Source of the DNA: a virus
Lineage: Duplodnaviria > Heunggongvirae > Uroviricota > Caudoviricetes
Reading direction: 5' to 3' (one strand)
IMG/VR virus record: IMGVR_UViG_2713896798_000006
DNA length: 25,620 nt
Position numbers and translations under genes: made by a program
The notes under the pieces: model-generated
Databases searched by the model: none
Told to the model about the DNA's origin: nothing
What the model saw: the letters and a program-made list of their open reading frames with translations, nothing else
In this document: in pieces, positions 545 through 21,768 of the stretch
Layout of the letters: each line of letters starts with the position of its first letter
Position numbering within the stretch: the first letter of the stretch is position 1

Positions 545-1663
545 TCAAACAACCAATTTAACCCATTCCTGACCACGAGTATCGTTATAACGATCGGTGG
601 TTGCTTGGACTTTATGTCCCAGTAATGTTTTTGTATCAATACCCTGCGCGCGGTACAGTCGTTCTGACAGGGAGCGTTGTTCATGAAATGTTGGCGGAGT
701 TTTTCCTGCTGGTGGAGTTATCCCAGCCAGATCCCGTGCTTTGGCAAAGTAGTCGCTCAGGTTGTCTTTACTCATCGGCTTTGGTTGTTTCTGGTGCCGA
801 CTATGGATTAGATATGGACTTAATATTCTGTCTCGGCACCCATCAATAACTTCTTTTAACGTTATCCCAATGGCATCACAGCGTAGTGTAAGCGGTAACG
901 CCAGACGCATTCTGGTTTTTCCCTGGGTGATATGCAAGTGTTCGTTCCACACATCTGAAAAACGCATGTGGCAAATGTCATCACGGCGCTGACCAGTAAC
1001 AATCGCAAGAAGCATTGCGTTACGGATAAAGTGTTTTTCAGGCGTTGCGTTGTAAATTTTTTGCCAGTCTTCCAGGGTGAGTCTGGATCTGGTCACTTTA
1101 GGGATCGGTTTACGGGTAGCCTCCGGAGGATTCCATCCAGGAGGAACTTCCCCTGCATGCTGTGCTTCTTTATAAATATCAACCCATAATCCGCGATTTA
1201 CTCTTGCTGTGCTGACCATGTCTTTATCCATCCACTCGTCCAGTATTAATGCAAAGTCTCTTACCTCCAGTTCTTTCAATGGGTGGTTTCCCAGGCGGGA
1301 AACCAGGTATGCAGCCATTCGCACTTTTTCTTTGTGGGTTGTAGCTGCAATATCTCCATTTTTCAGTCGCGTGTCCTGTATTTTCAGATATCGATCAACC
1401 CATGCCTTTAATCTGATACCCCGACGTTTTGTTGCTGATGGACTTTCATCAATTTTGCGCATGAAATATTCAGCTTCTGCTGCAGCTATCCGCTGATTGG
1501 CTGTGGAAGCGATTTTTTCTGCCTTACCTTTGTCTGTTCCGAGTCCGTGAAATTTTCCAGTCACAGGATTTTTATACTGGTAGTAAACTCTGCCAGTTCT
1601 GCGATCAAACTTTTCGTAAAGACCGGCTACGTCAGTGCTGTTTTTTCGTGGCCTCGGTGACAT
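545..1663 (-). CDS. int: Tyrosine site-specific integrase, lambda Int family
   Basis: 372 aa; overall pattern and C-terminus (HEQRSLSERLY...LLGHK...RYNDTRGQEW) parallel lambda Int (HELRSLSARLY...LLGHK...YRDDRGREW); start overlaps the upstream xis-like ORF as in lambda. Confidence 0.9.
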   Translation of the reverse strand: MSPRPRKNSTDVAGLYEKFDRRTGRVYYQYKNPVTGKFHGLGTDKGKAEKIASTANQRIAAAEAEYFMRKIDESPSATKRRGIRLKAWVDRYLKIQDTRLKNGDIAATTHKEKVRMAAYLVSRLGNHPLKELEVRDFALILDEWMDKDMVSTARVNRGLWVDIYKEAQHAGEVPPGWNPPEATRKPIPKVTRSRLTLEDWQKIYNATPEKHFIRNAMLLAIVTGQRRDDICHMRFSDVWNEHLHITQGKTRMRLALPLTLRCDAIGITLKEVIDGCRDRILSPYLIHSRHQKQPKPMSKDNLSDYFAKARDLAGITPPAGKTPPTFHEQRSLSERLYRAQGIDTKTLLGHKVQATTDRYNDTRGQEWVKLVV

Positions 1664-1910
1664 GAGTTAAAATCTCCTTCAGTGCATCATCATCGCCAGT
1701 ATGAATTTCCGGCGCAATTCCCGTTTCACCAGGCCCAACAAATACTGCTCGGCGATCTATCAGCCAACGCCCACGAATTTTTTGTGGTCTTGGAACGATG
1801 TATCCTAGTTTTCCGTATTTCACCAGGGTAGTGTTTGTTATTGGGAGACTGAACCGTTTTGGTTTCCACTCGTCGAGCGTTATCAGGTACTGTTCGCTCA
1901 TGGCTATCAC
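1632..1910 (-). CDS. xis: Excisionase (Xis-like)
   Basis: Small ORF directly upstream of and overlapping int; YLITLDEW...RP...PPP-like N-terminal resemblance to lambda Xis (YLTLQEW). Start may be the second Met (MSEQY). Confidence 0.65.
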   Translation of the reverse strand: MIAMSEQYLITLDEWKPKRFSLPITNTTLVKYGKLGYIVPRPQKIRGRWLIDRRAVFVGPGETGIAPEIHTGDDDALKEILTHVTEATKKQH

Positions 1911-1962: not shown

Positions 1963-4434
1963 TTAAAAATCAGCCTGACTCGGGATCAGTTTTTGCCAGA
2001 TAACTGAAACGTATTTTGCCTGGTAACGGGCGTCATCAAGTGCATTATGGCGCTCACCTTCGAATGGAATAGCCGTTCTGGCATCGAAGTCTATGGCTTT
2101 CCCCAGCTCAACGATTGTGCGTACATCGCGATCGTTGTAGTAACGCCACGGGCAGGGGATCCCCTGCCGTTCGTATGAACGGCGCAAAATCGTGTTGTCG
2201 AAGTTGGCTCCATTTCCCCAGACCTGAACAAAAAATTCACCGGAGTTTTCGTCGATAAATTCCCGCAATTGTAACAGTGCATCATCTAACGGGATTTCAT
2301 CGGTCATAATGGCAGATTGCGCTTCGCGTGATTGCTTAAGCCACCATTTAATGGTGTCCCGATCAATGACTCCGCCAGCAGTTTCCAGATCGATAGTCTT
2401 ACTAAATTCCGGTCCCATATCTCCGGTTTGCGGATCGAAAAATATTGCACCTATTGAGATGATCGGGGCATCAGGATTTTTTCCCATGGTTTCAAGGTCG
2501 ATCATTAGATGGTCACACGTCCTGCTGGTGGATGTGATTTCTTGATGACCGTTCACCTTAATTGAGTGATCTGCCGTCTCGCCAGTTTCATTATCGCTAT
2601 CGTGATGCTGATTGCCGCCAGTGTTCTCCTTGTGTGGATGTTCAGCGCCTTCCATTTTCTCCGGATCATCTTCCTGAACTTCAACCTGATACTCTTCATC
2701 GAATGTTTCCTGGTATGTTGCGTCGCCCATCACTGCGCCACAATCAGGGCAGTTGCCGCCGCCGGTCTGACCGCAGGCGGTGCAGACTTTTTCCACTTCC
2801 TGTTGCGCCACTGGTTCAGGCTGTTTCGTTTCTGGCTCGTTTTGTAACGCATTTGGGCTGTTTTGTTCCGCTTTTTGGTAGTTCCGTTCCGATTCATGCT
2901 GGTTCTGGTTTACAGAATCGCGGGTCTGGATCCCCTTAACCCATTTCGGATCATTCGGGTCGCTAATCCCTGCAACAAATTCTCCGCGAGAGGCAGCAAG
3001 CAACTTATCGGCGTCAGGCTGGCTGATATTGGCTGCCTGCATAATTTTGTTTACTTCGTCAGCGGTAACTTTTACCGGCTCTGGTTGTGCGGTCGTGTCA
3101 GATGCACCAGTATTTTGTTGTGAACCTGAGTATGTACTGTTTTTGCGGGCGAAATATTCTTCTTTCGTGATTTCAGTAGCCCCGGCAGCCAGTGCCTTAT
3201 CCAGACCAGAAAGTTTGTTTGCGCGACCGTATTTTTCGCCATCCTTGTCGGTGAAGAGGAAGTAGAACGGCCCCTCACGCTCTACAGATGGTTCGACTTC
3301 CACTTTGCATTCGGTTTTTTCGTTGTCCGGAATTGCCGTTTCCACTGCATCAGTTTCTGGTACTGGCGACGAGAGAGTATCAGTTGCGCTCTGATTTGTT
3401 CCTTCATCTTCAAACACGCCCTTTGTAGTCAGGTATTCAGTAATGTATTTGTTCAGTGCCACAGGGTCTTTGTGAATGTCGATCGGACGTTCACGGACAA
3501 GGCCAAAAATAGTCTGGCGGTCGTAGCGAAGGGCATCAGGCTGTTTGCGCATTGATGCCGAGATACGCTTCCAGTCTTCGCGGTCGTTGTCGATAACTTC
3601 ATTTTTTGCCCAGCGATGGATGCTGCCGTCAATGTTTCCGGCATCCACATCACCAGGCCAGAGAGCGTAGGCCAGTTCGTCATCCAGTGTTTTCCATGTC
3701 TGCTTGTATTCGCGATGAATGGCAGCAATGACCGGGCTGATTTTTCCTGTTGAATTTTCAGTGTGCTGTTGATTGGTTCTGGCGCGGGCGAGATCAACAA
3801 CAGACGTGTATTTTCCGGTTTCCTTGCGTTCACCTTCGCGACGTTTTTTCCAGATGCGCATCTCTGCCTGAATTTCGGGCCATTTGGCACCAGGCTTACA
3901 TTTATGCTTAACCCACCCGATGGCATGCAGCTTAAGCTCCGGATACATGGCGTTAACTTCTGGCATTTTCATCAACGCTTCAACGATATGTCCGTCGAAT
4001 GTTGCCATGTCTTCCTGCAACAATTCCTGTGCGCTAATAACCATATCAACGGTGATGTTTTCACATGTGTCGAACTTAACCATGACAGCGTTCTGTACTT
4101 CAGGGGCCAGCTTGTCAAAAGTGACGTTCATCGGATCTGATTCAGTCTCAACCGGAACAAAGGAAGCAGACTCCTCATCCCAGCGGTTTTCCTGCATATA
4201 TTCAGCATCCCATGAATCGAGGGCAGGGCGGGGTATGCCAGGTTTATCCTCGCAGATAATAAATTTATAAGCGCAGTCCTGAGCAGCCGGATAATGTTCC
4301 AGGAATTGCCAGTGAAATTTTGCTCGAGCACGGCGTTCGTCGCCAGCTTCAATAGCTGTGGCTACAGCGACTGCACCTTCTTCCTTTATTGCCTGTTCGT
4401 CCGGAATGGCGGCGCAAATAAAGACTTTACTCAT
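1963..4434 (-). CDS. Large early-region protein (823 aa) with C-terminal DnaQ-like DEDDh 3'-5' exonuclease domain, central Cys4 zinc ribbon and acidic/Gln-rich linker
   Basis: C-terminal motifs MIDLETMG (Exo I), WGNGANFDNTIL (Exo II), HNALDDARYQ (Exo III, His type); CTACGQTGGGNCPDCG zinc ribbon mid-protein. Sits where Qin carries ydfE; not RecE-like. Confidence 0.7.
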   Translation of the reverse strand: MSKVFICAAIPDEQAIKEEGAVAVATAIEAGDERRARAKFHWQFLEHYPAAQDCAYKFIICEDKPGIPRPALDSWDAEYMQENRWDEESASFVPVETESDPMNVTFDKLAPEVQNAVMVKFDTCENITVDMVISAQELLQEDMATFDGHIVEALMKMPEVNAMYPELKLHAIGWVKHKCKPGAKWPEIQAEMRIWKKRREGERKETGKYTSVVDLARARTNQQHTENSTGKISPVIAAIHREYKQTWKTLDDELAYALWPGDVDAGNIDGSIHRWAKNEVIDNDREDWKRISASMRKQPDALRYDRQTIFGLVRERPIDIHKDPVALNKYITEYLTTKGVFEDEGTNQSATDTLSSPVPETDAVETAIPDNEKTECKVEVEPSVEREGPFYFLFTDKDGEKYGRANKLSGLDKALAAGATEITKEEYFARKNSTYSGSQQNTGASDTTAQPEPVKVTADEVNKIMQAANISQPDADKLLAASRGEFVAGISDPNDPKWVKGIQTRDSVNQNQHESERNYQKAEQNSPNALQNEPETKQPEPVAQQEVEKVCTACGQTGGGNCPDCGAVMGDATYQETFDEEYQVEVQEDDPEKMEGAEHPHKENTGGNQHHDSDNETGETADHSIKVNGHQEITSTSRTCDHLMIDLETMGKNPDAPIISIGAIFFDPQTGDMGPEFSKTIDLETAGGVIDRDTIKWWLKQSREAQSAIMTDEIPLDDALLQLREFIDENSGEFFVQVWGNGANFDNTILRRSYERQGIPCPWRYYNDRDVRTIVELGKAIDFDARTAIPFEGERHNALDDARYQAKYVSVIWQKLIPSQADF

Positions 4435-4526: not shown

Positions 4527-4718
4527 TTAAAGACCTGCCGGGATTTCGTTATTATCCTGGTGAATAACTTTATCGACCGGGTAACAGTTACCGGGAATTT
4601 TCTGTTCGGTTGCTGCAGTTACACACTCCTGCATTGTCCTGTGAACACTGACTGCAATATCAACTGGCTCTCCGGAAACAAGAAAAACTGTCAGAACAAG
4701 TGCAAATGCTGTATTCAT
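4527..4718 (-). CDS. ydfD: YdfD-like small protein (Qin prophage lysis protein family), 63 aa
   Basis: MNTAFALVLTVFLVSGEPVDIAVSVHRTMQEC...NCYPVDKVIHQDN.EIPAGL matches my recollection of K-12 YdfD; start overlaps the dicB stop by 4 nt. Confidence 0.65.
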   Translation of the reverse strand: MNTAFALVLTVFLVSGEPVDIAVSVHRTMQECVTAATEQKIPGNCYPVDKVIHQDNNEIPAGL

Positions 4719-4903
4719 TGCCAGCATCCTTTTTGCATCGGACGTAAACGGGCCAGCATTGAAAGAATGCATATTTTATTTAATAGCTCCCGTTCGTGTT
4801 TTCTCTTGTTAATGGCATCTTCAGTAAATACAGGGTTACTGATAGTGACACCAATTTCAAAACAACCTTCAGACGTATTAACGTTTGGTAATAACGTTTC
4901 CAT
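4715..4903 (-). CDS. dicB: Cell division inhibitor DicB (62 aa)
   Basis: METLLPNVNTSEGCFEIGVTISNPVFTEDAINKRK.ERELLNKICI.SMLARLR is near-identical to K-12 DicB as I recall it. Confidence 0.85.
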   Translation of the reverse strand: METLLPNVNTSEGCFEIGVTISNPVFTEDAINKRKHERELLNKICILSMLARLRPMQKGCWQ

Positions 4904-5078: not shown

Positions 5079-5136
5079 AAAAAGGGCGGCAGAGCAGCCA
5101 CGGAGTAAAACTGATACCGCCAAACGTCACCAGAAA
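5079..5136 (-). ncRNA. dicF: DicF small RNA (ftsZ-targeting sRNA of the dicB operon)
   Basis: Reverse complement of 5084..5136 reads TTTCTGGTGACGTTTGGCGGTATCAGTTTTACTCCGTGGCTGCTCTGCCGCCC followed by TTTTT, matching the ~53-nt DicF sequence as I recall it; lies about 175 nt upstream of dicB. Confidence 0.8.
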
Positions 5137-5175: not shown

Positions 5176-6371
<1,196 letters not shown>

Positions 6372-7392: not shown

Positions 7393-7434
7393 ACTATAGG
7401 AAATGCCTAATTACTTGTCAATAGGCTATGCCTA
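7393..7434 (-). promoter_or_regulatory. Leftward PL-like promoter with overlapping operator palindrome, predicted to drive ydfA-ydfB-ydfC-dicF-dicB-ydfD
   Basis: Minus strand reads TTGACA (plus 7416..7421), 17-bp spacer, TATAGT (plus 7393..7398); operator TAGGCTATGCCTA at 7422..7434 abuts the -35 and a half-site GCCTAAT lies in the spacer. Confidence 0.5.
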
Positions 7435-7529: not shown

Positions 7530-8006
7530 TTAAGTTCCTGTCTTGGTGATGTTCTGGCTTTTCCGTTTTGATTCTTGATTTTTCAGATAGTTAGCTACCT
7601 TCATTTCCATTGCGGCAATGTAGGCGCGAACGTCATGATCAACCCAACTAGGCTCCGTAGCATTTCCAGATAAGATGAAAGCCACAATTGCTCTTTTTTC
7701 ATCAGAGGCGGCTTGATAAAGGCTGTTTATGTCTAAAAGTTCACTTTTTGTATCTGAAGTGGATGGGGTTGGTATGGGGTATTCGTTAAGCCCCCAATGC
7801 TCTGGACCAACCACATCAGAAAAGAAACGCCATAGTTCTGGAAGTTTGTCTTTACTTATCGAACCTTTCTTAATCCAGTCATGGATTGATGGTGGTTGGA
7901 CTTTGAAATGACGTGCGATTTCCGCCTTTGATTTGACGGCTCCTGATGCAATTTTTTTGTTAATGGCCTGCTCTATCGCTCGGCCTAAGTCTTTACCACT
8001 AAGCAT
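7530..8006 (-). CDS. Prophage repressor, HTH DNA-binding protein (158 aa; RacR-like by size and context)
   Basis: N-terminal HTH-like segment SKAEIARHFKVQPPSIHDWIKKG; flanked on both sides by operator palindromes; divergent from a Cro-position gene. Confidence 0.65.
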   Translation of the reverse strand: MLSGKDLGRAIEQAINKKIASGAVKSKAEIARHFKVQPPSIHDWIKKGSISKDKLPELWRFFSDVVGPEHWGLNEYPIPTPSTSDTKSELLDINSLYQAASDEKRAIVAFILSGNATEPSWVDHDVRAYIAAMEMKVANYLKNQESKRKSQNITKTGT

Positions 8007-12693: not shown

Positions 12694-12908
12694 GGTAAAA
12701 ACGGTTTGCGGTAAAGCGAGAGTTAAGTAGAATTGCTGCGGGTGCTTGAGGCTGTCTGCCTCGGGCATGCCACCGTAAGGCAGACAGAGAAAAGCCCCAG
12801 TTAACATTACGCGTCCTGCAAGACGCCTAACATTAATCTGAGGCCAATTTCATGCTAGACATATGTAGGTTAGCCTCTTACGCGCCGAAAGGCAAGGAGA
12901 AGCAGGCT

Positions 12909-13064
12909 ATGAAGCAGCAAAAGGCGATGTTAATCGCCCTGATCGTCATCTGTATCACCGTCATAGTGACGGCACTGGTAACGAGGAAAGACCTCTGCGA
13001 GGTACGAATCCGAACCGGCCAGACGGAGGTCGCTGTCTTCACAGCTTACGAACCTGAGGAGTAA
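12909..13064 (+). CDS. hokD: Hok/Gef family type I toxin (51 aa)
   Basis: MKQQKAMLIALIVICITVIVTALVTRKDLCEVRIRTGQTEVAVFTAYEPEE is essentially K-12 HokD as I recall it; followed by a terminator; the track ORF extends upstream in frame from 12852. Confidence 0.85.
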   Translation: MKQQKAMLIALIVICITVIVTALVTRKDLCEVRIRTGQTEVAVFTAYEPEE

Positions 13065-13511: not shown

Positions 13512-14561
13512 GTGCGGGTATTACTTCGACCTGTTCTGGTACCGGAACTCGGTCTGGTTATCGTTAAGCCAGGCCGTGAATCAATGTCAGCATTCCATAA
13601 CGGCAGAATACTGGTGGAGCCGGAACCAAAAAGCATGCGAGCTCTGCCGTCCGGGGTTGTACCTGCCGTTCACCAGCCGCTGGCGGAAGATAAATCACTA
13701 CTGCCATTTTTCAGCGATGAGCGGGTGAGCCGTGCTGCGGGTGGCGCTGGTGCACTGTCTGACTGGTTATTACGTCACGTGAAATCCTGCCAGTGGCTAC
13801 ACGGTGATTATCATCACAGCGAAACCGTCATTCACCGTTACGGTACCGGCGCAATGGTGTTGTGCTGGCACTGCGACAACCAGCTGCGTGACCAGACATC
13901 CGAATCACTCGAGCAACTTGCTCATCAAAACCTGTCAGCATGGATGATTGACGTCATCGGTCACGCAATAAGCGGTACGCAGGAGCGTGAATTATCTCTG
14001 GCTGAATTATCCTGGTGGGCGGTCCGCAATCAGGTGGCGGACGCGCTACCGGAAGCGGTATTACGTCGTTCGCTGGGGTTGCGTGCGGAAAAAATCCGCT
14101 CCATGTACCGTGAAAGCGACATCGTACCGGGAGAGCAGACCGCCACCAGCATACTGAAACAGCGCACAAAAAATCTTGCGCCGCTGCCTCACGCCCACCA
14201 GCAACAGAACCCACCACAGGAAAAGACGGTGGTCAGCATTGCCGTTGATCCTGAGTCTCCGGAATCTTTCATGAAACGACCTAAACGTCGCCGCTGGGTT
14301 AACGAGAAATACACTCGCTGGGTGAAGACACAGCCGTGTGCGTGTTGTGGTAAGCCAGCCGACGATCCCCATCACCTGATTGGTCATGGTCAGGGCGGAA
14401 TGGGGACAAAATCTCACGATATTTTCACGCTACCGCTGTGTCGGGAGCATCACAACGAGCTTCATGCGGATCCGCTGGCGTTCGAAGAAAAGCATGGTTC
14501 TCAGGTTGATTTAATTTTTCGTTTTCTTGATCACGCCTTTGCAACTGGCGTGCTTGGGTAA
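13512..14561 (+). CDS. YdfU-like protein (349 aa) with C-terminal HNH/zinc-finger-like motif (DUF968-like)
   Basis: C-terminus CACCGKPADDPHHLIGHGQGGMGTKSHDIFTLPLCREHHNELH; size equals Qin YdfU; start is a GTG preceded by GGAGG. Confidence 0.6.
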   Translation: MRVLLRPVLVPELGLVIVKPGRESMSAFHNGRILVEPEPKSMRALPSGVVPAVHQPLAEDKSLLPFFSDERVSRAAGGAGALSDWLLRHVKSCQWLHGDYHHSETVIHRYGTGAMVLCWHCDNQLRDQTSESLEQLAHQNLSAWMIDVIGHAISGTQERELSLAELSWWAVRNQVADALPEAVLRRSLGLRAEKIRSMYRESDIVPGEQTATSILKQRTKNLAPLPHAHQQQNPPQEKTVVSIAVDPESPESFMKRPKRRRWVNEKYTRWVKTQPCACCGKPADDPHHLIGHGQGGMGTKSHDIFTLPLCREHHNELHADPLAFEEKHGSQVDLIFRFLDHAFATGVLG

Positions 14562-16530: not shown

Positions 16531-16695
16531 TTTTTTTGTTTACTGTTTATTAAAAATACTACTGCATGGTGAATCCCCCTGTGCGGAGGGGCAATCAGCA
16601 ACCAGGTATATGTGATAATCGCGGATTCAGGTGCTGATACTGAATTCACCGGGAGGCACCCGGCACCATGCAAGAAAAAGAATGTGCATGCAAAC

Positions 16696-16723
16696 ATGCC
16701 CCTCTCCTGAGGGGCATTTTTAT
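16696..16723 (+). terminator. Rho-independent terminator (plus strand)
   Basis: 9-bp stem ATGCCCCTC/GAGGGGCAT, loop tcct, then ttttta. Confidence 0.55.
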
Positions 16724-16724
16724 G

Positions 16725-16752
16725 GGTAAAAAATGCCCGAATGGGTTCGGGC
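16725..16752 (-). terminator. Rho-independent terminator (minus strand), back to back with the plus-strand one
   Basis: Stem gcccgaa/ttcgggc with loop tggg; on the minus strand it is followed by the U-run complementary to ggtaaaaaat. Confidence 0.4.
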
Positions 16753-16848
16753 AATAGCATGAGATACTGATATTGTTGTGTTGTTATCGTGTGGATTTTA
16801 ACCAGGGTTTATCAGGCTGCGCAACTGCGTGGCCTTTTTTCATTTCTT

Positions 16849-19351: not shown

Positions 19352-20965
19352 TTATTTATTGGTGAGTACTACGTTCCATGGCAGGAGTTCGTCAACTCGG
19401 TTGGAAGGCCATTCCGGCAGTACGCTCAGGATATGGCGCAGATACGCTTCCGGATCGATACCGTTCAGACGGCAGGTGCCGATCAGCCCGTACAACAGTG
19501 CTCCACGCTCGCCGCCGTGATCGCTGCCAAAGAACATAAAGTTTTTCTTTCCGAGACAGACTGCACGAAGCGCTCTTTCCGCAGCATTATTATCCGCCTC
19601 CGCCAGACCGTCATCACTGTAATAACAGAGGGCATCCCACTGATTCAGTACATAGCTGAACGCTTCGCCCAGTCTGGATTTTTTCGACAGCGTACCATTC
19701 TTCTCCACCATCCATTCATGCAGCGACGTCAGTAACACTTTGCTTCGCTGCTGCCTGACGGCAAGACGCTCTGACTCCGGTAATCCCCGTATTTCATCCT
19801 CGATGGCGTACAGTTCACTGATTCGCTTCAGGGCTTCTTCTGCCGTCGCACTTTTGCTGCTGATGTATACATCGTGGATTTTTCGCCGGGCATGGGCCCA
19901 GCACGCAACTTCTGTCAGTGCACCACCTTCACGTTCTGCACTGAACAACCTGTCGTAACCTGTGAACGCATCCGCCTGCAGGATACCCCGGAAGGGGCGG
20001 AGGTGTTGCTCCGGGTGTTTCCCCTGCCGGTTCGGCGAGTACGCGAACCAGACCGCTGGAGGAGATGACGAACCCACATTGCGATCATCCCGGACATACG
20101 TCCAGATACGCCCTGTTTTCGCCTTTTTCTGACCCGGTGCCAGTACCTTTACCGGTGTGTCATCAGTGTGAACCTTGCGGGTGTTCATTACATAACGGTA
20201 CAGGGCATCATTCACCGGTGTCATTAACTGGCAGCACGCGTCAACCCAGTTGGAGAGTAAGGCCCGGCTCAGTTCGACACCCTGGCGGGCAAAGATTTCA
20301 CTCTGACGATACAGTGGCAGATGTTCGCAGTATTTTCCCGTTAACACGCGGGCAAGTAATCCGGGGCCCGCGATACCACGCTCTATCGGGCGGGACGGCG
20401 CCGGTGCTTCAACAATACAGTCACATTTTGTACAGGCTTTTTTTACCCGTTCTGTGCGGATCACTTTCAGGGCACTGCTCACCAGTTCCAGCTGTTCAGC
20501 GCTGACTTCCCCCAGATAATCCAGCTCACCGCCACACTCCGGGCAACAGCTTTCTTCTGGCTCCAGGCGGTGTATTTCACGGGGAAGGTGTGCCGGTAAC
20601 GGACGACGATGGCGCGACTGTCGCAACTGGCGGGGAACCTGAGGATCGTCTTCCCGCCCACTGTAACGATCGCTGTCCTGTTCACGTTGTTTCAGCAGAG
20701 CCTCAGCCAGTTCAACTTCACGACGCAGTTTTTCAGAACGGGTACCGAACAGCATCCGGCGCAGTTTTTCTATCTGAGCCCGCAGATGTTCTATTTCCCG
20801 TTCATCTTCTTCGATCTTTTCTTCGGCACGTGTCAGTGCAGAGCGCAGGAAGGCTTCCGTCTCTTCAACCAGACTCAGTTGCTGGTCTTTCTGACGGAGG
20901 GCTTCAGCCTGCTCAGAGAGCAACCTTTCCAGCTCTGCGATGCGAATGAGGTATTTCTGACTCAT
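19352..20965 (-). CDS. IS66-family transposase (TnpC, 537 aa)
   Basis: N-terminal coiled-coil/leucine-zipper region, Cys-rich zinc-binding segment (CPECGG...CTKCDC) and length typical of IS66 TnpC. Confidence 0.85.
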   Translation of the reverse strand: MSQKYLIRIAELERLLSEQAEALRQKDQQLSLVEETEAFLRSALTRAEEKIEEDEREIEHLRAQIEKLRRMLFGTRSEKLRREVELAEALLKQREQDSDRYSGREDDPQVPRQLRQSRHRRPLPAHLPREIHRLEPEESCCPECGGELDYLGEVSAEQLELVSSALKVIRTERVKKACTKCDCIVEAPAPSRPIERGIAGPGLLARVLTGKYCEHLPLYRQSEIFARQGVELSRALLSNWVDACCQLMTPVNDALYRYVMNTRKVHTDDTPVKVLAPGQKKAKTGRIWTYVRDDRNVGSSSPPAVWFAYSPNRQGKHPEQHLRPFRGILQADAFTGYDRLFSAEREGGALTEVACWAHARRKIHDVYISSKSATAEEALKRISELYAIEDEIRGLPESERLAVRQQRSKVLLTSLHEWMVEKNGTLSKKSRLGEAFSYVLNQWDALCYYSDDGLAEADNNAAERALRAVCLGKKNFMFFGSDHGGERGALLYGLIGTCRLNGIDPEAYLRHILSVLPEWPSNRVDELLPWNVVLTNK

Positions 20966-20995
20966 GACCGTTTTTATAATGCGGTCAGGAGTTTT

Positions 20996-21346
20996 TTACA
21001 ACATTGTCAGTGAGTTACGGCTGGATGTTTTTGGCTGACGCCAGTCCAGCTTATCGAGGAGCATTGCCAGTTGCGAGCGGGTAATGGATACCTTGCCGTC
21101 ACGTACCGCAGGCCAGATAAACTGGCCTTCCTCCAGGCGTTTGGTGAACAGGCACAGACCATCAGCATCAGCCCAAAGAATTTTGACGGTGTCACCCCGT
21201 CGGCCACGGAAGATAAACAGGTGACCGGAGAAGGGATTATCATTCAGCACATGTTGTACCTGTTCTCCCAGTCCGTTGAAGGATTTACGCATATCGGTAA
21301 CGCCGGCAACGAGCCAGATACGGGTACCTGATGGGAGTGAGATCAT
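20996..21346 (-). CDS. IS66-family accessory protein TnpB (116 aa)
   Basis: MISLPSGTRIWLVAGVTDMRKSFNGL... typical IS66 Orf2; overlaps tnpA stop. Confidence 0.8.
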   Translation of the reverse strand: MISLPSGTRIWLVAGVTDMRKSFNGLGEQVQHVLNDNPFSGHLFIFRGRRGDTVKILWADADGLCLFTKRLEEGQFIWPAVRDGKVSITRSQLAMLLDKLDWRQPKTSSRNSLTML

Positions 21347-21768
21347 CTTCCCCTCCCGGTCAGTTCACGGATCAACACTGTGAGCAGCTCTGGCGATGGA
21401 TTTTCCAGCGTCATGTTACCGTGACGGAATTCCACCTTGCAGGAACTGGCACTGACTCTGGTCTGAGTGGAAGTGGATAAAGACGGCGCAATGGCCGCCA
21501 CAGGTTCTTTCTGCTCATCCGGCGTTATTTCTACAGGTAATAATTCAACGCCAGTGTCAGAAGAGGTCGTTACCGGAAGACGCCGCGAAACACGCCCTTC
21601 GTTCTGCCAGAGCCTGAGCCATTTGAAAATAACATTATCATTGACGCCATTTTCACGTGCAATCTGTGCAACACAAGCTCCAGGTTGTGATGCCAGTTCC
21701 ACCATACGAAGTTTGAATTCATTCGAATAGTTTTTACGAGGTTCTTTTCGCCAGTCCTGTAATTCCAT
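21343..21768 (-). CDS. IS66-family accessory protein TnpA (141 aa)
   Basis: HTH-containing first ORF of the IS66 operon, immediately upstream of and overlapping tnpB. Confidence 0.75.
   Translation of the reverse strand: MELQDWRKEPRKNYSNEFKLRMVELASQPGACVAQIARENGVNDNVIFKWLRLWQNEGRVSRRLPVTTSSDTGVELLPVEITPDEQKEPVAAIAPSLSTSTQTRVSASSCKVEFRHGNMTLENPSPELLTVLIRELTGRGR

Follow-up and report, generated by a model that had tools for sequence, protein, structure and literature searches.

What kind of enzyme is encoded by the long gene lying next to the excisionase and integrase genes of a temperate tailed phage, and does its amino-terminal two thirds derive from any known protein? The question was raised by IMG/VR record IMGVR_UViG_2713896798_000006 (Caudoviricetes), a stretch of 25,620 nucleotides hereafter called the window. 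Its minus strand carries a gene for an 823-amino-acid protein, the full-length version of YdfE. Our analysis showed that this protein ends in a DEDDh exonuclease domain (the head), which is preceded by a long region that is collinear and homologous with the non-catalytic part of RecE (the scaffold). The gene and the modules of its product are listed below, with confidence values of the predicted local distance difference test (pLDDT) from AlphaFold2 where relevant.

1963..4434, minus strand: exonuclease gene (full-length YdfE), 823 amino acids, an uninterrupted open reading frame with an ATG start
3814..4434, minus strand: N-terminal alpha/beta domain (residues 1-95) and helical domain (105-207), remotely homologous to RecE 4-220
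3406..3702, minus strand: helical module N3 (residues 245-343), roughly RecE 278-350, present in most long relatives whatever their head type
3124..3273, minus strand: beta-hairpin/helix module M4 (residues 388-437, GPFYF...GRANK...EITxEEYxARK), pLDDT above 90, present in many relatives
2941..3021, minus strand: peptide M5 (residues 472-498, LLAASRGEFVxGISDPNDPKWV), near-identical in RecE, weakly folded (pLDDT 62-71)
2719..2787, minus strand: Cys4 zinc ribbon (residues 550-572, C551-x2-C554...C562-x2-C565), also found in K-12 RecE, pLDDT about 80
2527..2718, minus strand: acidic disordered linker (residues 573-636), similar to RecE until residue 625
1966..2517, minus strand: DEDDh 3'-5' exonuclease domain (Rv2179c-like/DexA-like, residues 640-823), recognised by motifs, Pfam and fold

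All three DnaQ-like motifs that the initial annotation had reported at the C-terminus, from the sequence alone, were recovered in the head: Exo I (D646-x-E648, within MIDLET), Exo II (D746, within GANFD) and Exo III (H796-x4-D801, within HNALDD). Pfam family PF16473 (Rv2179c-like 3'-5' exonuclease) matched residues 642-813 with an E-value of 2.3e-67 and 226.6 bits against a cut-off of 27, over model positions 2-177 of 177. The AlphaFold2 model of residues 640-823 displayed an RNase H-like alpha/beta fold with blockwise pLDDT mostly between 75 and 94, and Foldseek related it at a probability of 1.00 to RNase T, DexA, the DnaQ domain, Orn/REXO2 and Cap18 (target TM-scores 0.6-0.73); the best 50 of 89 matches at E<=0.001 were all DEDDh exonucleases. 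Since motifs, profile score and fold agree, the head is a member of the DEDDh (DnaQ-like) superfamily. The DEDDh residues were kept in 10 of 11 aligned relatives and the catalytic residues are conserved across genera. A relative of 752 amino acids (P0236) displayed Lys for the motif I Glu (DLKTMG) and Ala for the motif II Asp (SFANV), and may carry a catalytically dead head.

The sole PDB structure found by sequence was that of T4 DexA (8KEL/8KEN, E-value 1.6e-6, about 32% identity), a 3'-5' DNA exonuclease (PMC12153337). The catalytic residues align with DexA D7/E9, D119, H186 and D191, all of them thus being common to DexA and the 823-amino-acid protein. DexA and its E. coli homologue EcD belong to the same DEDDh domain family and share its fold. 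Yet they are stand-alone proteins of about 190-230 amino acids, whereas the domain terminates a far longer protein here, and the loops specific to DexA, including the segment with D169, are missing. DexA assembles into dimers and tetramers. The head would act as a metal-dependent 3'-5' exonuclease on DNA 3' ends, as its relationship to DexA suggests.

The initial annotation had further stated that the protein is not RecE-like, which proved wrong. By BLASTP, residues 262-625 matched K-12 RecE 278-591 with an E-value of 1e-62, and the similarity rose to about 80% identity in residues 470-625, which include the zinc ribbon, the acidic linker and the string LLAASRGEFVxGISDPNDPKWVKGIQTRD. The NCBIfam RecE model NF007259 aligned residues 246-625 with its positions 271-602 of 877 at 284.5 bits, below its cut-off of 1269. 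At the N-terminus, the comparison of a profile of 21 YdfE-type N-termini with one of 10 RecE-type N-termini by hhalign placed residues 2-203 collinearly on RecE 4-220 (187 columns, 96.4% probability, E-value 1e-9); reversed, column-shuffled and block-shuffled controls scored 10-23 instead of 67, with probabilities of at most 3.4%. Because the three kinds of matches run collinear, residues 1-625 correspond, at the level of sequence, to RecE 1-591, and it is only the catalytic head that differs. The head-swap junction lies at residue 625, where the similarity stops; neither similarity to RecE 600-866 nor a PD-(D/E)XK Pfam match was found in the 823-amino-acid protein.

The comparison with RecE (exonuclease VIII of the Rac prophage) can thus be drawn closely. 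The non-catalytic regions are collinear and homologous, both proteins carry the Cys4 zinc ribbon, the acidic linker and the GISDPNDPKWV peptide, and both genes lie in an early-left operon close to xis and int. In contrast, the RecE head is a 5'-3' PD-(D/E)XK nuclease where a DEDDh 3'-5' exonuclease stands here; the gene studied is followed by xis and int rather than by recT; and module M4 is extra here, being missing from K-12 RecE.

In the full-length AlphaFold2 model the scaffold resembled beads on a string, 221 residues of the protein having pLDDT below 50, with predicted disorder at residues 499-547 and 573-636. The Cys4 ribbon (C551, C554, C562, C565) and the acidic, Gln-rich linker described initially upstream of the head were indeed present. 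A Gln/Asn-rich stretch followed by an Asp/Glu-rich one together cover residues 500-640 (13 of 40 residues Gln or Asn in 501-540, 13 of 40 Asp or Glu in 561-620). The peptide M5 is flanked by disorder on both sides and its consensus, QLAAxRGE(Y/F)(V/I)xGISDPxDPKW, was strikingly well kept in diverged relatives with differing N-termini and heads; it looks like a candidate partner-binding motif. Residues 1-207 gave no notable structural match in the PDB or BFVD. The statement that the N-terminal 400 residues lack a recognisable motif was borne out in part: the local Pfam scan found no family there, but the PHROG 2082 ('exonuclease') profile spans the whole protein end to end (residues 1-823 against positions 1-823 of 823, 1878 bits) and close homologues bear the newer precomputed Pfam identifiers PF27430 and PF27432. 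No well-characterised exonuclease family of known role was found to extend over the full length, and the N-terminal region of RecE is itself described as being of unknown function (PMC11611040).

The scaffold belongs to a mosaic family, for which just 175 clusters were found when 1.84 billion representative proteins were searched exhaustively with residues 1-344. Module-wise BLAST together with Pfam and PHROG scans of the long relatives distinguished two N-terminal types, YdfE-like and RecE-like, and at least four heads: the DEDDh exonuclease, the RecE PD-(D/E)XK/DUF3799 nuclease, the PHROG 7838/2489 'exonuclease' and the PHROG 26058 head. In both loci examined for relatives with a RecE head (HK225 and a Klebsiella phage), recT lay directly downstream.

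The PHROG 7838 head displayed a weak Pfam Rad52_Rad22 match at the motif KKSLTDAMKKALSLLGFSADIYLG (E-value 0.036). Its stand-alone homologues, 40-45% identical, carry precomputed PF04098, one being named a RAD52-pathway protein, and phage records name homologues of this head 'RAD52-like annealing protein'; the PHROG scan gave it no Rad52 name. As judged from these homologues, the PHROG 2489/7838 head is a Rad52-like single-strand annealing domain and not a nuclease. Scaffold-Rad52 fusions comprise relatives P0130, P0132, P0140, P0158 and P0179 as well as gp07 of Pectobacterium phage ZF40 (L093:2648-4813). The latter, labelled 'putative exonuclease', displays the same scaffold (PHROG 2489 matches residues 3-356) and the same early-left site before int, its C-terminal head being a predicted annealing domain instead of a nuclease. 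The 'exonuclease' label on PHROG 2489/7838 proteins looks like an annotation error spread via transfer; many stand-alone Vibrio phage homologues of the Rad52-like head are likewise labelled 'exonuclease'. Since relatives carry either a RecE head together with RecT or a Rad52-like head, the scaffold is tied to DNA recombination.

A case of module exchange was provided by phage vB_EcoS-640R1, whose 813-amino-acid allele (L007:4129-6570) likewise follows dicB-ydfD at the potC-side attachment site. From residue 453 on, the allele is about 99% identical to the protein studied here, and its N-terminal half is of the RecE type and unrelated-looking to that of our protein. The alignment shows a recent exchange inside the linker between M4 and M5, and modules therefore swap by recombination within linkers. 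The DEDDh domain also occurs without any RecE-type scaffold in temperate phages, as in the 190-amino-acid protein of phage mEp460_4F5, whose domain is 59% identical and whose gene occupies the same int-proximal early-left site.

The distribution of both forms was surveyed with an alignment of the exonuclease domain as query in one genome per species, which yielded 80 head-encoding loci. Fusions of 641-851 amino acids made up 25 of the 80 loci (25 species), and about 50 were stand-alone genes for 186-260 amino acids. Fusions occurred in Escherichia, Citrobacter, Kluyvera, Klebsiella, Pluralibacter, Dryocola, Buttiauxella, Kosakonia, Phytobacter, Atlantibacter and Enterobacter; most had a RecE-type N-terminus, the YdfE type being limited to Escherichia. 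Their genomic context was conserved: in all 25 fusion loci a same-strand integrase gene begins about 0.3-0.7 kb downstream, and in 24 of them a repressor-like gene lies at most 3.5 kb upstream. A small open reading frame was recorded just upstream of the fused gene in 16 of the 25 species (e.g. L019:4915-5289); its motif resembles that of an Rrf2/IscR-type helix-turn-helix protein, which it may encode.

No annealing partner of the RecT, Bet or Rad52 type accompanied the DEDDh form. Within 7 kb of the head in the 80 loci, no match to RecT, lambda Bet, lambda Exo or Gam was found, Erf, Sak4 and Gp2.5 types not having been searched for, and over the same distance no RecE-nuclease or Rad52-head match occurred outside the exonuclease gene itself. 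Likewise, the 25,620-nucleotide window contained no RecT, Bet or Rad52-like gene, the search again leaving out Erf, Sak4 and Gp2.5 types, and in phage Tritos no annealing-protein gene is annotated from the tail genes onward. A tblastn match to lambda Gam at 14241-14351 (37 amino acids, E-value 7e-4) runs antisense to a DUF968 gene and was judged spurious.

The gene itself is intact and widespread. A GAGG Shine-Dalgarno sequence lies 9 nucleotides 5' of its ATG. Its RefSeq counterpart is WP_000048411.1, with an identical locus in strain O103:H2 12009, and many E. coli genomes, chiefly of O103:H2 or further Shiga-toxin producers, contain a gene that is 100% identical at the DNA level and labelled 'exonuclease' or '3'-5' exonuclease'. 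Of 5426 complete E. coli genomes, 3533 (about 65%) had DNA that spans at least 80% of the gene, with a median of 2 matching places per genome. Lambdoid genes 91-96% identical were recorded in the sequenced phages mEp460_ev081, Tritos, HannyBb, PhiR42_1 and Evi and in the PPompW prophages, several of these phage or prophage copies being labelled 'exodeoxyribonuclease VIII'; the sequenced phages Tritos, mEp460_ev081 and HannyBb carry an intact copy. The initial annotation was right in considering K-12 ydfE, a pseudogene of the Qin prophage, as the truncated counterpart: it occupies the same place after dicB-ydfD and equals residues 1-256 at 97% identity, but IS2 cuts it short there, and the whole remainder from residue 257, with the exonuclease, is missing.

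Ratios of non-synonymous to synonymous substitution rates (dN/dS) calculated against phage Tritos were 0.04-0.25 in the folded modules and 0.77 in one linker; the value of 0.74 for the zinc-ribbon/acidic segment rests on 4 substitutions. Given the low ratios of the folded modules, this is a real coding gene.

The position of the gene bears on when it may be expressed, and the relevant neighbouring features are the following.

7530..8006: RacR-like repressor gene
7393..7421, minus strand: likely promoter of the early-left operon (TTGACA-17-TATAGT, a call based only on its 11/12 consensus match), just downstream of the RacR-like repressor gene
5084..5135, minus strand: DicF small RNA, same operon as the exonuclease gene (Rfam RF00039, 75 bits)
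4715..4903, minus strand: dicB, cell-division inhibitor gene, same operon
4527..4718, minus strand: ydfD (DUF1482), upstream neighbour in the same operon
1632..1910, minus strand: excisionase gene, immediately downstream of the exonuclease gene
545..1663, minus strand: integrase gene, downstream of the exonuclease gene

The exonuclease gene is the last of the dicF-dicB-ydfD operon and precedes xis-int, in agreement with its initial placement at the int-proximal end of the early-left region. In O103:H2 12009 the order is RacR-like repressor, ydfA-like, ydfB-like, ydfC, dicB, ydfD, exonuclease, excisionase, integrase and potC. On the coding strand, a strong promoter-like site was detected at 7421..7393 only, and none in the 92-nucleotide gap before the exonuclease gene. 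Since the gap is devoid of such a site and one lies beside the repressor gene, transcription would take place as part of the repressed early-left operon. In the window, an IS5 copy (5176..6371, repeats GGAAGGTGCGAA at both ends, transposase open reading frame 5323..6303 on the minus strand) separates ydfC from DicF. It is missing from phage Tritos and from the O103:H2 12009 locus, where the exonuclease gene is 100% identical and the order otherwise the same; through a polar effect it may reduce or alter the expression of dicF, dicB, ydfD and the exonuclease gene.

Further elements of the window lie outside this operon. An IS66-family element (19352..21768) comprises three minus-strand open reading frames encoding a DDE_Tnp_IS66 transposase (537 amino acids), TnpB_IS66 (116 amino acids) and HTH_Tnp_1 (141 amino acids). 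Rfam recognised an STnc100 small RNA (16538..16727, plus strand) adjoining an AgvB anti-GcvB small RNA (16728..16789, minus strand), as well as a sok antitoxin RNA (12740..12914) beside a hokD-type toxin.

The reading that we favour, tentatively and short of an even chance, is that the gene encodes a RecE paralogue whose polarity is reversed: an early-lytic, flexibly tethered 3'-5' DNA-end exonuclease delivered by a RecE-type scaffold and working without a phage partner of the RecT, Bet or Rad52 type. The exonuclease would be made upon prophage induction or phage infection and not in the repressed lysogen. Its scaffold of about 625 residues would bring the head to the partner or DNA structure used by RecE and by the scaffold-Rad52 fusions, such as DNA ends or recombination and replication intermediates, where the head would remove nucleotides from DNA 3' ends. 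Scaffold delivery and head activity, taken together, would make it an enzyme of DNA-end processing that cooperates with host functions and not with an annealing protein of the phage.

Several points weigh against this reading, and our confidence in it is held down because substrate, timing and scaffold role are all inferred. DNA, and not RNA, is taken as the substrate solely from the nearest relative. The timing of expression is deduced from where the gene lies in its operon and from what is generally known of the dicB operon of K-12. A 3'-5' exonuclease leaves 5' overhangs, on which single-strand-annealing recombination does not usually act. A two-component recombinase of the classical RecET type is ruled out, since neither the window nor the 80 loci offered a RecT, Bet or Rad52-like partner gene. 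Even for RecE, the literature assigns the scaffold no function (PMC11611040). Finally, a literature search turned up no paper studying the 823-amino-acid protein or its function.

Other explanations place the same head in different roles. The protein might be a prophage-encoded defence of the type called HREX, digesting the 5-hydroxymethylcytosine (5hmC) DNA of infecting T-even phages and thereby shielding the lysogen. DicB, encoded in the same operon, has been reported to block some phages. DexA and EcD ('HREX') discriminate 5hmC DNA, and EcD digested T4 DNA and protected cells against T4 in a 2025 paper (PMC12153337); the catalytic residues are shared, and the frequency of the gene in complete E. 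coli genomes would suit a defence. Nevertheless, the gene lies in a repressed operon with no promoter-like site of its own, and the residues that the 2025 paper links to specificity have no clear match here. DexA W152, involved in 5hmC recognition, aligns with Y766 here (most relatives having Trp there), and D169, which has the same role, falls in the DexA-only insertion and has no counterpart. In EcD, absence of the tetramer-forming Asp (DexA D90) reportedly limits activity to modified DNA (PMC12153337), whereas this Asp is kept here as D718 in a pairwise alignment at 32% identity. With no clear match for W152 and D169 and with D90 retained, selectivity for 5hmC DNA is therefore not supported for the 823-amino-acid protein. 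EcD is, moreover, a separate small stand-alone protein (MIDTET start and TIPETYD end, as read from primers), no open reading frame of this type was among the 80 species loci, and the 625-residue RecE-type scaffold would be left unexplained; we consider this defence role unlikely. An anti-defence or host-takeover nuclease, destroying host DNA or defence nucleic acids in the early lytic phase (e.g. retron multicopy single-stranded DNA or other 3'-ended DNA or RNA) instead of taking part in recombination, appears quite unlikely as well. It would agree with the location among early accessory genes, with the missing annealing partner, with the part taken by T4 DexA in host DNA scavenging (PMC12153337) and, by analogy, with the degradation of retron multicopy single-stranded DNA by RecE, which sets off a retron toxin system (bioRxiv 10.1101/2020.06.22.160242). 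Yet the PADLOC defence models gave just one meaningless match of 12 bits, and a scaffold that is also fused to a Rad52-like annealing domain favours recombination over destruction.

Should the head work on RNA 3' ends, like M. tuberculosis Rv2179c, RNase T and oligoribonuclease, transcripts of its own operon might be among its targets. The Pfam family is named for the exoribonuclease Rv2179c, RNase T, Orn and REXO2 are among the structural matches, and the small RNA DicF is encoded in the same operon. This is nonetheless very unlikely, as the only structure found by sequence is that of a DNA exonuclease, the scaffold is common to a DNA exonuclease and a DNA-annealing domain, and of the 25 fused loci only those of the Escherichia type gave a tblastn match to DicB (dicF was not searched for). 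That the protein is a functionless relic of domain shuffling, drifting within prophages, is barely credible. The K-12 copy is indeed cut by IS2, IS5 splits the operon upstream in the window and one distant representative has substitutions in motifs I and II; but the window and sequenced phages alike have an uninterrupted reading frame, the catalytic residues are kept in different genera, fusions occur in 25 species and dN/dS stays clearly below 1 in all folded modules, the zinc-ribbon/acidic segment excepted.

The gene is no discovery in itself, as its very common family is listed already in PHROG (group 2082) and in RefSeq ('exonuclease'). What is new with respect to the searchable literature is the RecE scaffold with a swapped head of putatively opposite polarity, the presence of an apparent Rad52-like annealing domain on the same scaffold in relatives, and the consistent lack of a RecT, Bet or Rad52-type partner for the DEDDh form. 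Names need attention accordingly: 'exodeoxyribonuclease VIII' is misleading here, as it implies the wrong enzyme class, and 'exonuclease' on PHROG 2489/7838 would hide a Rad52-like annealing protein. Carriers of the DEDDh version include many Shiga-toxin-producing strains, and competition between phages might also be affected should the head act in the manner of DexA or EcD. A bolder proposal, which we regard as distinctly improbable, is that the N-terminal region of RecE (about 600 residues) is a portable targeting platform on which lambdoid phages mount interchangeable DNA-processing heads: a 5'-3' exonuclease accompanied by RecT, a 3'-5' exonuclease lacking an annealing protein, a Rad52-like annealing domain or the PHROG 26058 head. 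The DEDDh form, present in most E. coli genomes, would on this view be an unrecognised class of early phage effectors, not recombinases, which the GISDPNDPKW peptide would deliver to a host partner and which would destroy 3'-ended DNA of competitors or host defences. RecE is a workhorse of recombineering, two thirds of which have no known function. A natural scaffold that carries an exonuclease of opposite polarity or an annealing domain provides a comparative handle on the job of this region, which must be independent of nuclease polarity.

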